Part shown: in pieces, positions 14,104-24,739 of the stretch
Layout: each line of letters begins with the position of its first letter
Numbering within the stretch: the first letter of the stretch is position 1
Source: a virus
Length of the DNA: 37,190 bases
IMG/VR virus record: IMGVR_UViG_3300045594_000115
Coordinates: 1-37,190 of that record
Strand: one strand, 5' to 3'
Notes under the pieces: generated by a model
The model's input: only the letters and a program-made list of their open reading frames with translations
Databases searched by the model: none
What the model was told of the DNA's origin: nothing
Program-made: the position numbers and the translations under genes

Positions 14104-16162
14104 TAGGTATCAGTCCCTCCATTTTTTCCAAATCTTCATAGGTATCTTTTGTATCAACGAGGCGCTGATCCTCAAACCCTCGGCGCTTGCCCTTCAGTTC
14201 CCAGCCAAACGCTGAATCAGGTCTGTCTGAAGAAACGATAAAGTAGTCCTTGCCACGTTCAGAAACCCAAAAATGCGCGTCACTGTATGCTGTCAAGAAC
14301 ACTTGATAAGGCTTATCCGTGTTAATCAAATCAAAAACGAGCGGATCAATGTCCACTCGCACTGTTTTGTCATCGCCGGTTTTGCTCTCACCAATATCCC
14401 CGACATAGTTTTCTGCAAGCTCGTATGCAGGAGTAGCACGAATACCATCACGGGTAACTTGTGCGGCGTTCTTCGATCCGCTGTAAACGTAGAAATCTCC
14501 CCAGACGCTCGTCTTGCCTACTGTTACTTGAAACTGAGCATTTTGACCACCGTTAGCACTCACGTTGAACTTCGAGTCATGATATATCCACATTCCGCCA
14601 TCTTGCTTACTGACAAGCGGAGACATCAGTGAACCGTACAAGCAATATTGGCGGTTGTCAGGAGTTGAGGTTTCCGGTATCTTGAAAATTGGCAAACTCA
14701 TGCCATTAGTTCCGACTTGGTCGATACTGAAGTTTGAACCGAGCTGATTCCATATTGCGAACCCGTTAGGAATACCGGTGTCACTGTTTACCGTAGCGGT
14801 TAGCGAACCGAACTCGTGATCGCCTTTGACAACCCTCAGTGTGCCACTGGCAAGTGTTAGGGCATAGCCGCTCTTACTCTCAGTCTTAAAGCCAACCCCT
14901 GAGATGAGATTGCCAAATATTCGGTCAGCAACAACACCATCAGCAGTGATGGCACTCTTGAATGTTTGGCCTCCGTCTGTTGATACGCCAACGCCAGCAC
15001 TATTGAGAATCACAACCTTGTTTGCGTCTGACTTGTCAACAGCGATAATTCCTTGATCAGTGAAACTAAGTTCTGTTCGTGCGGCAAGAATATTATTAGT
15101 AGCCAATTGCACTTGTGATGTTAGCCATTCATTAGGTACTGGTATCTTGCCAGCGGCTACGTTAGATAGTGTTGATTGTGATGTCTTCTGCTGTTCAGCA
15201 AATGACAGGCTACCACATTCAACTTCCGTTTTGGTTCGTGTGCCGCGAATGTCGTAGTCGCTGGTTACTTTAATGATCCGAACCTTGTCACTGAAGTTAA
15301 GGTTCTCATCAATCACCGTAATGTAGTCACCGGGATTTGCCATTGCATATTTGTAGCCGACAGATTGCAAGTCAACAAGGTTTAGGGTGAGTGAGATTGC
15401 CCAACTCTTATCAACTTTTTCTTTCACAGCAGCAAGCAAGTTGTCAGCAATTGTGTACCGCTCATCAGCAACAGGAACTGCTTCAATTGCGCCAAACTTT
15501 GGATAGTAGTAATCATATAGCGGAGACTTATACTCTACCTTCAAGCGTTCGCTCGTGGTGTCGTCAGGTTTGCTGTATGCACCATACCCGCGCCCATAGG
15601 TAGCAAAGCTTGTGTTGTCTGTCTGAATTTCCGCTGTATCAAGATTGAACTTTTTGCGAACGATGGTAGACAAATCAGAGCCCATTGCTGGGACGACATG
15701 AACTACTGTGCCTTCAACAGAGAACTCAACGTTTGCTTGATCGATGATGCCGTTGAATAGCGACAGACGGTCACTCATGCCCCAGTCTTGCTTTTCAAAA
15801 GCTGCGACTGAGGCTGTATTGTCATACGTGTACCCAGTGCCAGCAAATAAAGCATCAAGATAAGTTGCAAACGGGTGCGACCCATTCCAAGTTTCGTAGA
15901 AACCAGTCTTGCTCATTTTGTAGAAGAACGCCTGAACGGCGCTGAACGCAACGGTGTTCTTTTTGTCGTTCTTCGTGTATGTGACAACAACATAGTCCTC
16001 ACCAAGAAAAGAGAGCGTCCAGCCTTTGGCAATGTTGCTCTTAACATCTTGGCCAAAATAGATTGTCCCAGATAATGACTTCTCACCATTCACCGCATCG
16101 GTTTTCTCAATCTCGCACTGGGCCTGATATTCATTATTCTCAACGTCTGTGAATGTAATCAA
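14072..16162 (-). CDS. Tail-associated lysin / tail endopeptidase-family protein (Tal)
   Basis: Position after Dit, size of 696 aa, and an N-terminal region typical of the prophage tail endopeptidase family. TTG start 8 nt after AGGAGG. Confidence 0.75.
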   Translation of the reverse strand: MITFTDVENNEYQAQCEIEKTDAVNGEKSLSGTIYFGQDVKSNIAKGWTLSFLGEDYVVVTYTKNDKKNTVAFSAVQAFFYKMSKTGFYETWNGSHPFATYLDALFAGTGYTYDNTASVAAFEKQDWGMSDRLSLFNGIIDQANVEFSVEGTVVHVVPAMGSDLSTIVRKKFNLDTAEIQTDNTSFATYGRGYGAYSKPDDTTSERLKVEYKSPLYDYYYPKFGAIEAVPVADERYTIADNLLAAVKEKVDKSWAISLTLNLVDLQSVGYKYAMANPGDYITVIDENLNFSDKVRIIKVTSDYDIRGTRTKTEVECGSLSFAEQQKTSQSTLSNVAAGKIPVPNEWLTSQVQLATNNILAARTELSFTDQGIIAVDKSDANKVVILNSAGVGVSTDGGQTFKSAITADGVVADRIFGNLISGVGFKTESKSGYALTLASGTLRVVKGDHEFGSLTATVNSDTGIPNGFAIWNQLGSNFSIDQVGTNGMSLPIFKIPETSTPDNRQYCLYGSLMSPLVSKQDGGMWIYHDSKFNVSANGGQNAQFQVTVGKTSVWGDFYVYSGSKNAAQVTRDGIRATPAYELAENYVGDIGESKTGDDKTVRVDIDPLVFDLINTDKPYQVFLTAYSDAHFWVSERGKDYFIVSSDRPDSAFGWELKGKRRGFEDQRLVDTKDTYEDLEKMEGLIPNGNQNVQSNS

Positions 16163-20855: not shown

Positions 20856-21488
20856 TTAAGCGTGAGAAGTGGTTGTGGTGGTTGACGTTGCAGATCCATC
20901 TGCAAACTCGCCGGCTTTTTCGCCAGGGCGTTCGAATGCGTAGAGCTGATGTAGCATTGCAACTTGTGCATCAGAAAGAGGGAACGTTCCCGGCGTGCCA
21001 TCTTCGTTTTTGTCAGCAAGTTTGCCGATAATGTTTAAAGTGAAGTCAATCTCGGAGAAGCTATCTTCGTCTGAGATGTCGGCACTATCAACAACACCAT
21101 AACCAAACATTGCCGGATAAGCTTTGTGGTCACCTTCTACAACGGCCAGACGTTCATCGACAATGACACGCCATACTTTGACCTGTCGGCCTTCGTGCTT
21201 GGCGTCAATGATGATTTCATGTGCTTTATCGCCCGGAACCATGTAAGTTGTAAGCTCAATGCTGTCTTCGTTGGTGGATGCGGCAATGACACGACCCATC
21301 TTGGTTTGCTCATCAAGAGAATCACCTTCAATGTTTGTGTCGCCGGACTCTTGGTGAGCTGGCAAGATTGCAGGACTGCCAATTGGTGCCACTGCTGGGT
21401 TAGTTGATTGGATGAAGTACCAAACATCTTTACCACGATATGGGGTGTCTTTTACAAATTCGATTCCGTTGTTTACTGGAATTGCCAT
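20856..21488 (-). CDS. Major tail (tube) protein with a Thr-rich C-terminal tag
   Basis: Position upstream of the chaperones and size of 210 aa. It ends ...DGSATSTTTTTSHA*. Confidence 0.8.
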   Translation of the reverse strand: MAIPVNNGIEFVKDTPYRGKDVWYFIQSTNPAVAPIGSPAILPAHQESGDTNIEGDSLDEQTKMGRVIAASTNEDSIELTTYMVPGDKAHEIIIDAKHEGRQVKVWRVIVDERLAVVEGDHKAYPAMFGYGVVDSADISDEDSFSEIDFTLNIIGKLADKNEDGTPGTFPLSDAQVAMLHQLYAFERPGEKAGEFADGSATSTTTTTSHA

Positions 21489-21856: not shown

Positions 21857-22227
21857 TTGAACGTGGCTGCCTCCTTCAACTTGTCAATTGTCGTTTTAAT
21901 GAACAACGATTGTGCCGCTGAAACGGCCGGACGAATGAATGGCTCGGCTGACATTTTGTAGGTGCCAAATTCAACAAAGGAAGAATAATCAGCCTTGGCA
22001 TTAACACTTCCAGTCACAGATGTAGCTGTCTTCTTAACTGGCTCAACACTAATGTTGTTTGCCATGTATCCGGTTCTTTTTGGTGCCACCTGTTTTGCTG
22101 TTGCTTGTACCTGACCGGTAGTGACCTTCATCGCTGATGATGCGGCTTCAATAGTCGCTTCCGCTGTCGTGCCTAGTTCTTCCATCAATTTATCGAGTCC
22201 AGACCATGTGACATTGGTATTAGCCAT
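21853..22227 (-). CDS. HK97 gp10-like tail component
   Basis: The sequence ...KRTGYMANNISVEP...ADYSSFVEFGTYKMSAEPFIRPA resembles the HK97 gp10 family. The start was moved to the ATG at 22227, which follows GGAGGTG. Confidence 0.65.
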   Translation of the reverse strand: MANTNVTWSGLDKLMEELGTTAEATIEAASSAMKVTTGQVQATAKQVAPKRTGYMANNISVEPVKKTATSVTGSVNAKADYSSFVEFGTYKMSAEPFIRPAVSAAQSLFIKTTIDKLKEAATFK

Positions 22228-22516
22228 TGCTTGCACCTCCAGACACGATAAACACGGTTGACTTGCGATTCACAAAAGTCTTGTTGATTGTCAATTTGAC
22301 ACCATCAAGCTCAATCTCGTTCACAGGCAGTGCGGGATTCTTTACGTAAATCTCGTAGGCCATGGTGTTCACAAGTCCGTATACAGACAACTCTTGTGCA
22401 CTGGTGATTGGGATTGTCAGGCAAGTGACTGTCTCGCGCGTCTCTGTTGGCCTGTCATGCAATGGATCAGCCGGTGGTAACTTCCTGATGAGGGTGATTC
22501 GATTGTTGTATCTCAT
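22220..22516 (-). CDS. Head closure / head-tail adaptor protein
   Basis: 98 aa. Synteny after the gp6-like connector. TAATG overlap with the upstream gene. Confidence 0.65.
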   Translation of the reverse strand: MRYNNRITLIRKLPPADPLHDRPTETRETVTCLTIPITSAQELSVYGLVNTMAYEIYVKNPALPVNEIELDGVKLTINKTFVNRKSTVFIVSGGASNG

Positions 22517-22878
22517 TACACAAACCTCATTCCCGGTCTTCGGCTTTGTGATGACTCACGATAGACGTCAAGGCCGTCAGCATATTTAGACAGATCAATG
22601 GTTTCCCATGTATTTGATACATTGCCCTCACCGCTGGCCGTTTTGCCTTCGTCACCAAGGCGGTTATACATCTTTACCACAACGTCCTTGATTACCCATG
22701 TGACCGCATCCGGAACAGTCTGGTTAACTACACCGTCTTGGTTGATATAAGCCAGCACGCGAGCATTCACGTCATTAATAAGGTCGTTTAGCAAGTCATC
22801 TTGCAGCGTATCGGTCAAACCGATGCGAAGTTTCACACTTTTCAAAACATCTGCATTAGTATCTGAATCAGCCATCAT
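22516..22878 (-). CDS. gp6-like head-tail connector protein
   Basis: MMADSDTNADVLKSVKLRIGLTDTLQDDLLNDLIND... is a typical connector N-terminus. The ATG overlaps the stop of the GT-like ORF (ATGA). Confidence 0.7.
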   Translation of the reverse strand: MMADSDTNADVLKSVKLRIGLTDTLQDDLLNDLINDVNARVLAYINQDGVVNQTVPDAVTWVIKDVVVKMYNRLGDEGKTASGEGNVSNTWETIDLSKYADGLDVYRESSQSRRPGMRFV

Positions 22879-23753
22879 TTCACCGCCTTTACTGCTTGCA
22901 CATACTTGTATGAGCACTTCGACTTGTCGACGAAACTCAAATCATCTTCAAATGGCGTGTGATTAACGTACTTGCCTTTGAAGAACAAGCGTTTGTCATT
23001 CACTGTCACGCCAGCATTGTGCATGATCTTGGTTTCATTCCATCGCTTGACTGGATCAGTAGCCCAACAAAAATCGAGCTCATCACTGATGACGGGCCCG
23101 ATGTTGAAGTACATCATGTTCCAAAGTTGCGACCACATTTCTGCGGTCCATTTCTGAATATTGCTGTCGACTGTCTGCAAATATTGCCACAGTCGGTTGC
23201 TGTCGGCATACACCTTGCGCCAGTATTCTACTGACGGGTGACTGATGATCCACTGGGCACCACCGGAGTTGTGATTGATCGTTTCAAGCGAGGCCAACGT
23301 GACTCCGACAATGTCAGCCATGCGTTTCAGGATATCTTCTCCGTGTTCGCACTGCTTGATATAGTCAACGCTGATGTAGCTCAACGTGTTGCTGCACAAC
23401 CAACGATCAGTCTTTGCTTTCAGCTTGCGGAAGTCAGGCCGTTTTCGGAAGATGACATCGCTATCGAAATAGAAATAGTCCTTGTTCTCACGCTCAGGAT
23501 CTTCTGCAAGATATTGCCACCAAAGCCAAGGCTTCACAGATGGAATATATTGCTTGTCTGAGCGCTTGTCCGTGTACGTGTGTACTTCTACTCCATATTT
23601 GATTGCAAGCGTTTCTGGCACCTTAGAATCATGCATAGTGAAGAGCAAAACGACATCTTTCATGTCAAACCCGACACTTTGCAGATTGGTTAGGCAGACT
23701 TCCAACTCCCACTCAAAACGCTTAATGGCAGGTTGACACAAAATAAGCTTCAT
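22875..23753 (-). CDS. Putative GT-A-fold (DxD) glycosyltransferase embedded in the head-tail operon
   Basis: GGAGGA RBS before the ATG at 23753. An N-terminal beta-strand MKLILCQP is followed by YFYFDSDVIF, which resembles the YLDxDxxV motif of nucleotide-sugar transferases. The fold call is not verified by alignment. Confidence 0.5.
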   Translation of the reverse strand: MKLILCQPAIKRFEWELEVCLTNLQSVGFDMKDVVLLFTMHDSKVPETLAIKYGVEVHTYTDKRSDKQYIPSVKPWLWWQYLAEDPERENKDYFYFDSDVIFRKRPDFRKLKAKTDRWLCSNTLSYISVDYIKQCEHGEDILKRMADIVGVTLASLETINHNSGGAQWIISHPSVEYWRKVYADSNRLWQYLQTVDSNIQKWTAEMWSQLWNMMYFNIGPVISDELDFCWATDPVKRWNETKIMHNAGVTVNDKRLFFKGKYVNHTPFEDDLSFVDKSKCSYKYVQAVKAVK

Positions 23754-23821
23754 TCTGTCCTCCAATCAGCCGCCCGGTTTCCCGTACTGTCCTATTTCGA
23801 TAGGCGACTTAGATCAATTAA

Positions 23822-24739
23822 TTAAGCGTGTGAAGTTGTCGTTGTGGTAGATGGTGCCACAGTCGAAGTCGTAGTAGTTGCTGACGTGCCGGCAGTGAAG
23901 ATTGCCTGACGGTTGTCATCGCTGATCCACTGGCCTGCCTTACCGGCACCTTGCAAAGCAACGCCTGCAAAGTTCTCGGATTGAATCGTCCGAACAACGT
24001 TGATGCCAGTGAATGCACGGCCAATGTTGTCAGGCGAGAAGATGATGGCCTTGCCAGCCATGTAACGGGTAGGCGTCTTGGTAACAACGATGTCACGGAA
24101 GCGAACAATGCCGTTTTCATCAATGTTCACAGCGGAACCTTTGTAGCTGGTTACCAATGTGTGGTCGATGATTGCGTTGTAGACTTCGGCAGTAACGTAT
24201 GCACGAACCGGGACAACAACTTCAAGATTCGTGTAGCGTTCTGATGCTGCTTCGAATACCTTGTTGACATCTTCAACACCGCCCAAGTCAGCGGCCGCAC
24301 TTGCAACCAAGTAAGCACCCAATTTGCCGTTGAACAGACGTGTCTTAGCTTGTGCTTGCAAGTTCAGGCGGTCAGCAACAGCAGAGTTCAAGTCTGTGTT
24401 GACAGTGAACTGATCAATGCCTTCGTTGAAGCTCCAATTGAAGTCGTACGGTACATCAATGTCGCTGTATACGATCTCTTTCATTGGCCCAAAGCGGTTA
24501 GAATTGCTGGTGCCAGAGCCAAACGCAACGTTAGGGTCAGTGTTGTAGTTGCCAACAGCAACGGGCACATCATTTGCCTTAACACTGAACGCAATCGCGT
24601 TGTTTTGAATGCCATCGAGTGCTTGCAAATCACCAAATGTCGGTGTGAATGTGCTTTGCACGCCGAAGACGGTTTGCATCATTGCAATGAACTGTTTCTG
24701 ATAGAGACGTACTGGTAAATTGTTGTTTTCTGTAGCCAT
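23822..24739 (-). CDS. Major capsid protein with a Thr-rich C-terminal tag
   Basis: 305 aa, located directly after the scaffold gene. It ends ...SATTTTSTVAPSTTTTTSHA*. Confidence 0.85.
   Translation of the reverse strand: MATENNNLPVRLYQKQFIAMMQTVFGVQSTFTPTFGDLQALDGIQNNAIAFSVKANDVPVAVGNYNTDPNVAFGSGTSNSNRFGPMKEIVYSDIDVPYDFNWSFNEGIDQFTVNTDLNSAVADRLNLQAQAKTRLFNGKLGAYLVASAAADLGGVEDVNKVFEAASERYTNLEVVVPVRAYVTAEVYNAIIDHTLVTSYKGSAVNIDENGIVRFRDIVVTKTPTRYMAGKAIIFSPDNIGRAFTGINVVRTIQSENFAGVALQGAGKAGQWISDDNRQAIFTAGTSATTTTSTVAPSTTTTTSHA

Follow-up and report, generated by a model that had tools for sequence, protein, structure and literature searches.

The stretch of DNA analysed here, referred to as the window, covers positions 1 to 37,190 of the IMG/VR virus record IMGVR_UViG_3300045594_000115 (37,190 nucleotides, nt) and amounts to approximately a whole temperate siphovirus encoding an integrase, an amidase and a Mu Gam-like protein. 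Our subject is a glycosyltransferase-like gene on its minus strand (22875..23753; PHROG 4417), which runs from an ATG start to a TGA stop and encodes a protein of 292 amino acids (aa). The major capsid protein gene (23822..24739, minus strand; 305 aa, PHROG 840, E 4e-120) adjoins it upstream, and the head-tail adaptor gene (22516..22878, minus strand; PHROG 132), which is given as context only and stands outside the system proposed below, follows it downstream. The original prediction, made from the sequence alone, had described an open reading frame (ORF) of 292 aa between the capsid and connector genes, with a strong ribosome-binding site and a stop codon overlapping the connector start, and both signals can be read in the sequence: a GGAGG at 23759..23763 on the minus strand, and a stop TGA (22877-22875) which overlaps the in-frame ATG (22878-22876) of the adaptor gene, the overlap forming an ATGA at 22875..22878 on the minus strand. 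A TTG at 23765, four codons upstream, was considered as an alternative start and is unlikely, because the GGAGG sits 5 nt before the ATG. The PHROG 132 match in the adaptor gene begins at residue 15, which is one residue past the ATG at 22878-22876.

The ATGA overlap is a predicted translational coupling of the 292-aa ORF to the adaptor gene. Between the ORF and the capsid gene the minus strand shows no promoter-like or terminator-like site, and RNA folding of the 68-nt spacer that separates them was not significant (z = -0.17), with no attenuator or terminator seen. As judged from these features, the gene is co-transcribed with the late structural genes, which agrees with the expression that had been proposed for it on the basis of the coupled stop and start. 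The minus-strand order is large terminase subunit, portal, minor head protein, a small ORF, scaffold, major capsid protein, the 292-aa ORF, head-tail adaptor, a 'minor head protein' ORF identified by a profile match (PHROG 348; 22220-22516, minus strand), Neck1, tail terminator, major tail protein, chaperone and tape measure; the large terminase subunit, portal and tape measure were assigned from their position and the other structural genes from PHROG matches. A Pfam scan of 10 large ORFs of the window returned nothing sugar-related and no second glycosyltransferase.

Along its entire length the 292-aa protein belongs to PHROG 4417 (E 1.1e-148; residues 1-292 against profile positions 1-292 of 293), a family which carries the label "unknown function", is also annotated as "prophage pi2 protein 34", and has no model in Pfam or NCBIfam. 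One database search returned 556 homologous proteins at E<=1e-3 and a search of another database returned 874 representatives of 50%-identity clusters; given these numbers, the ORF is far from being a chance reading frame. When 50,697 phage records were searched with tblastn, 77 records matched the protein (E<=1e-3), all annotated as hypothetical. The host genera of the phages carrying the family include Lacticaseibacillus, Lactobacillus, Enterococcus, Staphylococcus, Lactococcus, Clostridium and Listeria, together with Bacillaceae. In longer members a second domain is fused to the enzyme, of the Glycos_transf_2, Glyco_transf_7C, GT25-like, Methyltransf_24 or radical-SAM/SPASM type (P0160, P0170, P0177, P0221, P0250 and P0267), which hints at a more elaborate, multi-step modification of glycans or peptides in some phages.

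The protein was modelled with AlphaFold2 from an alignment of 38 homologues, at a predicted local distance difference test score (pLDDT) of 97 and a predicted template modelling score (pTM) of 0.93. A Foldseek search against the PDB gave 321 matches at E<=1e-3, and the top 50 listed are, without exception, glycosyltransferases (GT) of the GT-A fold. The best match is the catalytic domain of UGGT (GT24; E 3e-8, probability 1.0), followed by glycogenin (GT8), the ABO enzymes GTA/GTB and alpha-3-GalT (GT6), and WbbM. In a library of viral structures the top three matches are uncharacterized, the first two of them being close relatives, including LP65 Orf49, while the named matches at lower ranks are mostly GT8-type or other viral glycosyltransferases. 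A protease or a decoration fold, which had been named in advance as outcomes that would speak against a glycosyltransferase, is ruled out by the fold search, in which neither appeared. As modelled, the protein is a single Rossmann-like alpha/beta/alpha domain with a GT-A fold, as the original prediction had guessed, and it represents a previously unclassified family of GT-A glycosyltransferases structurally nearest to retaining enzymes. The more specific guess of a GT8-like enzyme is matched by the nearest solved structures, which are retaining enzymes of the GT24, GT8 and GT6 type; membership of GT8 or GT2 is not seen in the sequence. None of 76 relatives matched PF01501 (Glyco_transf_8) at E<=1, and the window protein is thus, as judged by profile searches, not a sequence member of GT8, GT2 or HPAT. 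It is also free of transmembrane segments (maximum Kyte-Doolittle hydropathy over 19 residues of 1.09), as had been proposed.

An alignment of 76 sequences at 31-48% identity was used to identify conserved positions. No variation is seen at Y69, D99, Y131, G165, W202, M206, H245 and K259, while at D97 and Q167 at least 90% of the sequences agree. The motif YFYFDSDVIF, in which a DxD had been suspected, occupies residues 93-102 and places D97-S98-D99 after a strand at 92-95; since D99 is invariant and D97 conserved in at least 90% of the sequences, the DSD is the conserved DxD of the family. A DxD directly after a beta-strand is at its usual place in GT-A enzymes, and in GT8 enzymes an invariant downstream histidine (His) serves as the third metal ligand.

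The second component of the locus is a run of threonine (Thr) residues, found in only two ORFs of the whole window, which encode the major capsid and major tail proteins. The capsid protein ends in a tail of 22 residues, GTSATTTTSTVAPSTTTTTSHA (23825..23890, minus strand), which is absent from its orthologues in phages lacking the enzyme. The major tail (tube) protein (20856..21488, minus strand; 210 aa, PHROG 238) ends in SATSTTTTTSHA (20859..20894, minus strand), and its last nine residues are the same as those of the capsid tail. Across this shared STTTTTSHA (23825-23851 in the capsid gene, 20859-20885 in the tail-tube gene) the two genes differ at five synonymous and no non-synonymous sites, and the conservation is therefore at the level of the peptide. 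We regard the capsid protein as a putative substrate of the enzyme and the tail-tube protein as a putative second one.

To place this pairing in a wider context, 87 further loci bearing the enzyme were surveyed (80 IMG/VR contigs and the phages phiFL1A, VPE25, bIL285, 1706, phiCTP1, Iacchus and SA2), a poly-Thr ORF being defined as one on the same strand, of at least 80 aa, with a run of at least five serine (Ser) or Thr residues including at least four Thr. All 87 enzyme-bearing loci contain at least one such ORF, and in 162 of the 178 poly-Thr ORFs the run lies no more than six residues from the C-terminus. The start of the enzyme gene lies within 150 nt of the stop codon of a poly-Thr gene at 84 of the 87 loci. 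The proteins that carry the runs are diverse, spanning at least 10 unrelated PHROG families: capsid proteins (PHROGs 840, 29, 10, 544 and 909), tail-tube proteins (PHROGs 238, 88, 117 and 2645), small decoration-like proteins (PHROG 14018/341) and, occasionally, others such as protease/scaffold proteins or the C-terminus of the portal. Named phages in which both the enzyme and poly-Thr are present include phiFL1A, VPE25, bIL285, 1706, phiCTP1, SA2, Iacchus and R9.1.

Tails are found on both head and tail proteins in several of these phages. They read ...TTTTTKPTTTTTTTQG on the capsid side and ...SSTTTTTTTQASSK on the tail tube of phiFL1A, ...TTTTTTTTTHHD and ...TTTTTTTTTTHHD, respectively, in 1706, and ...TTTTTTTSHV and ...TTTTTTTTTSHV in R9.1, while in phiCTP1 the small head protein gp11 ends in ...TTTTTVAPTTTTSTSQG and the tail tube in ...APITTTTTTV. 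The portal protein of phiCTP1 (L085, 2356-3945) also has a Thr-rich end, ...TTTSTTEPITTTTTTMNNNEED, and the tag therefore extends beyond capsid and tail-tube proteins. Within a single phage, the last two or three residues after the Thr run are often the same on the capsid and on the tail tube, though the proteins themselves are unrelated: SHA/SHA in the window, and SHV/SHV, HHD/HHD, TQA/TQA or TSK/TSK in others, at loci including L219 (R9.1), L084 (1706), L077 and L062. These matching terminal residues suggest either a recognition element or gene conversion between both tails.

Some loci depart from the common arrangement. In SA2 (L091) a very Thr-rich ORF of 90 aa (14658-14930) overlaps the 3' end of the major tail protein gene, of which it may be a frameshift extension. 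In Iacchus (L090, 18955-22669), a Lactobacillus myovirus of the Herelleviridae, the main structural block does not include the enzyme gene; upstream of this gene are two small proteins with poly-Thr, one of which has six Thr-rich repeats (PHROG 14018), and downstream is a structural protein with a glycerophosphodiester-phosphodiesterase domain. In three IMG/VR contigs (L147, 3204-9407; L182, 7132-12111; L194, 3265-8265) the enzyme gene is found directly 3' of huge ORFs of 1659-2067 aa with runs of at least seven Thr approximately 80 residues from the C-terminus, and PHROG 4417 may also serve large fibre-like or adhesin-like proteins.

A complementary picture is evident in relatives without the enzyme. 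Silenus, ATCC8014-B1 and phiJL-1 belong to Coetzeevirus, the genus of R3.3, which is the closest relative of the window, and their capsid proteins are 65-75% identical to that of the window. Across their complete genomes there is neither a homologue of the enzyme nor poly-Thr in a real gene (the single match being a 62-aa antisense ORF), and their capsid proteins end in ...AIFTASPKA, precisely where the 22-residue tail of the window capsid starts. The structural modules of WC29P3, PBC1, A25 and TMW 1.591 P1 likewise have neither the enzyme nor poly-Thr tails. A homologous capsid protein was found in 147 phage records and, among the matches listed, only R3.3 is also among the listed enzyme matches. 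R9.1, iLp84 and PLE3 match the window at 77-88% nucleotide identity across the enzyme gene only (22870-23850); here the flanking capsid and adaptor genes are unrelated to those of the window, yet poly-Thr tails are present on capsid and tail-tube proteins. From these gene neighbourhoods, the enzyme gene appears to be a mobile cassette which moves among unrelated structural modules.

Based on structure prediction and comparative genomics, we consider it likely that the protein is a soluble, late-expressed GT-A enzyme which O-glycosylates poly-Thr tags on the capsid and tail-tube subunits. The enzyme would be cytoplasmic and probably metal-dependent, made alongside the late structural proteins, and would transfer a sugar from a nucleotide-sugar of the host to the hydroxyls of the Thr (and Ser) runs through its DxD/His site. 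At the C-termini of the major capsid and major tail-tube proteins, the tails would act as acceptors, and the outcome would be short, mucin-like glycopeptide tags on the head and the tail of the virion. That the natural substrates are the virion proteins assembling at the same time, with their STTTTTSHA ends, had been part of the original prediction and is strongly supported by comparative genomics; both the catalytic step itself and the role of the tails as acceptors are what we infer from this evidence. A retaining mechanism, and for this reason an alpha linkage, is suggested by the nearest structural neighbours, and the phage enzyme would start the glycan rather than extend one. The phage could benefit because the tags shield it from proteases or antibodies, keep the particles colloidally stable, or help in adhesion. 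In the wider form of this proposal, towards which we lean with somewhat less assurance, PHROG 4417 and the poly-Thr tag would constitute a self-contained pair in which one enzyme serves one tag, coating the head and tail of Firmicutes phages with O-glycans, travelling as a mobile cassette, with the tag gained independently by at least 10 capsid, tail-tube or decoration families.

Several observations weigh against this interpretation. With the retaining GT-A enzymes of GT8, GT24 and GT6 the protein shares the fold (Foldseek probability 1.0, E approximately 1e-8 to 1e-6), the DxD after a beta-strand and the downstream His, and two of these enzymes, glycogenin and UGGT, also act on protein substrates; however, the template modelling (TM) scores to solved GT-A enzymes are only approximately 0.5 at a sequence identity of approximately 10%, and neither the protein nor the family profile has a sequence match to Glyco_transf_8 or to the PDB. 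The putative GT8-like metal site of D97, D99 and H245 is proposed from the conservation of these residues. A Pfam search of the protein gave no match at E<=10 and NCBIfam gave none either, while searches of PDB sequences with phmmer and two profiles yielded nothing significant, only SKA1 and geminin, which are spurious. Weak matches were obtained for HPAT (PF23452, the hydroxyproline O-arabinosyltransferases, which act on peptides) in four of the 76 relatives (best E 1.3e-4) and for DUF6492 (PF20102) in two (best E 2.8e-4), with none for the window protein; in this test P0224 scored 20.5 bits against a cut-off of 22.9, below the curated score, and a Pfam rescan of the 10 most divergent family members gave one sub-threshold DUF6492 match only. 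No report on the PHROG 4417 family or on glycosylated virions of Firmicutes phages turned up in the literature searched.

The distribution of the tags also calls for caution. Given that the 87 loci are related, they are not phylogenetically independent, and the raw contrast of 87 to 0 overstates the independence of the pairing; a fair count is approximately 10-15 independent structural lineages with the pairing versus approximately four without. Among 120 sampled viral fragments with eight consecutive ACN codons, 114 contain no enzyme in the fragment and six carry the family; being short and drawn from all environments, the fragments show only that poly-Thr is not exclusive to PHROG 4417, and poly-Thr proteins without the family nearby may be served by other enzymes, or by none. 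Poly-Thr is also found inside the protease/scaffold proteins of SA2 (L091, 9874-10983) and VPE25 (L082, 6119-7297), proteins which are not expected at the surface of the mature virion.

Other functions of a GT-A enzyme would fit parts of these data. The phage enzyme could only extend a glycan of which the first sugar is added to Thr by a host system, such as a GtfA/GtfB-type O-GlcNAc transferase. On the serine-rich adhesins of streptococci, O-GlcNAc is extended by GT8-domain enzymes, and lactobacilli attach O-glycans to Ala/Ser/Thr-rich domains in proteins of their own. Both the GT8-type enzymes among the nearest folds and the presence of one glycosyltransferase gene only among the 10 large ORFs scanned are in keeping with such a division of labour. 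We nevertheless regard it as unlikely, since the family spans many host genera, all of which would need a common initiator acting on cytoplasmic phage proteins, and since a self-sufficient pair of enzyme and tag better accounts for the cassette-like mobility of the gene. Less likely still is a modification of the host envelope, in which the sugar would be attached to a glycopolymer (wall teichoic acid, lipoteichoic acid or a cell-wall polysaccharide precursor) and the poly-Thr tails would be unrelated linkers. The corresponding benefit, at the same low probability, would be a receptor block leading to superinfection exclusion, or a reduced loss of progeny on debris, as in seroconversion of the prophage TarP or Gtr type. 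Phage-encoded GT-A enzymes which modify teichoic acids exist, and the phage of the window is temperate and encodes an integrase. However, TarP- and Gtr-like lysogenic-conversion enzymes are independent morons with membrane association or a flippase, whereas the gene described here is embedded in the late operon through a coupled stop and start with no promoter or terminator of its own, which is not the position of a moron expressed in lysogeny; its product has no membrane segment, and a scan of 10 large ORFs revealed no flippase partner. Members of the family also occur in phages reported to be virulent, such as 1706 and Iacchus (Herelleviridae). A role at the envelope would furthermore leave unexplained the co-occurrence with poly-Thr at every surveyed locus, the adjacency of the genes at nearly all of them, and the loss of the tail in relatives without the enzyme.

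The two remaining explanations we hold to be very improbable. In the first, the sugar would be attached not to protein but to phage DNA, giving hypermodified bases, or to a small molecule; DNA glycosyltransferases of phages are well known (bioRxiv 10.1101/2023.12.21.572611), and the Iacchus gene lies near replication genes. Against this, Pfam detected no gene for base hydroxymethylation or another hypermodification among the 10 large ORFs scanned, nearly all of the phages examined carry the gene within their structural module, and even the Iacchus copy is flanked by the two small poly-Thr proteins. Equally improbable is a catalytically dead protein which retains the GT-A fold and acts as an assembly chaperone or a minor structural component, a role for which the position among head-completion genes would be suitable: the DxD aspartates, His245 and Lys259 show complete or almost complete conservation at 31-48% identity, which is the pattern of an active site and not of a scaffold, and the fusions to further glycosyltransferase and methyltransferase domains point to enzymology. 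O-glycosylation of the poly-Thr tails thus remains our preferred explanation.

To our knowledge, glycosylation of phage virions has been shown experimentally for mycobacteriophages only. The abstract of the 2023 study by Freeman and colleagues reportedly places O-linked glycans at the C-termini of mycobacteriophage capsid and tail-tube subunits, and is said to find scant evidence that phages at large are glycosylated. The system proposed here resembles the mycobacteriophage one in its phage-encoded glycosyltransferase and in its capsid and tail-tube targets, which are here predicted from the genes, and the Ser/Thr-rich C-terminal extensions sought in this comparison are present on both subunits. 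Mycobacteriophage glycosyltransferases (Che8 gp110, Corndog gp38, Myrna) are described as modifying capsid and tail-tube proteins and as lowering antibody recognition (PMC12363180, PMC11600133, PMC10568470, all citing Freeman et al., 2023). There are clear differences: no Mycobacterium phage was found among the organism names tallied for the 77 tblastn records, the mycobacteriophages carry a cluster of two or three glycosyltransferases with an O-methyltransferase as opposed to one gene in the structural operon adjoining its presumed substrate, and the presumed acceptor here is a regular poly-Thr tag in phages of Firmicutes hosts. By analogy, the locus is most likely a parallel to mycobacteriophage virion glycosylation, but one that employs an unrelated and undescribed enzyme family.

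Dense O-glycosylation of Ser/Thr-rich, low-complexity regions is found in the mucin-type ppGalNAc-transferases (GT27) and in the glycosylation of serine-rich-repeat adhesins of Gram-positive bacteria. As a general comparison, the tags would resemble these systems in carrying dense O-glycans on disordered Thr/Ser runs, in the manner of a bottlebrush; they differ in that other enzyme families are involved, and that the substrates there pass through the secretory pathway or are exported adhesins, as opposed to the cytoplasmic virion proteins considered here. Glycosylation of a major capsid protein by the enzymes of the virus itself, independently of the host, is described for Chlorovirus PBCV-1 in two reviews (PMC5408694, PMC9614988), though this is a giant virus of eukaryotes which employs several enzymes and whose glycans are N-linked and atypical.

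The analysis points to PHROG 4417 as a large, unannotated enzyme family that is found in phages of Enterococcus (VPE25), of dairy Lactococcus and Lactobacillus and of Clostridium, as well as large siphoviruses of Staphylococcus, and its presumed substrates can be read straight from the genome as poly-Thr tails. Confirmation of the proposed activity would provide a function for PHROG 4417, would change how structural proteomics and cryo-electron microscopy of these phages are read, and would have a bearing on the immunogenicity and stability of therapeutic and dairy phages; the compact pair of enzyme and tag would also be a tool for glyco-engineering in Gram-positive bacteria. If our interpretation is true, virion glycosylation would be common among phages rather than a peculiarity of the mycobacteriophages, and the pair of enzyme and tag would be a portable way to glycosylate any protein through the addition of approximately 10 residues.

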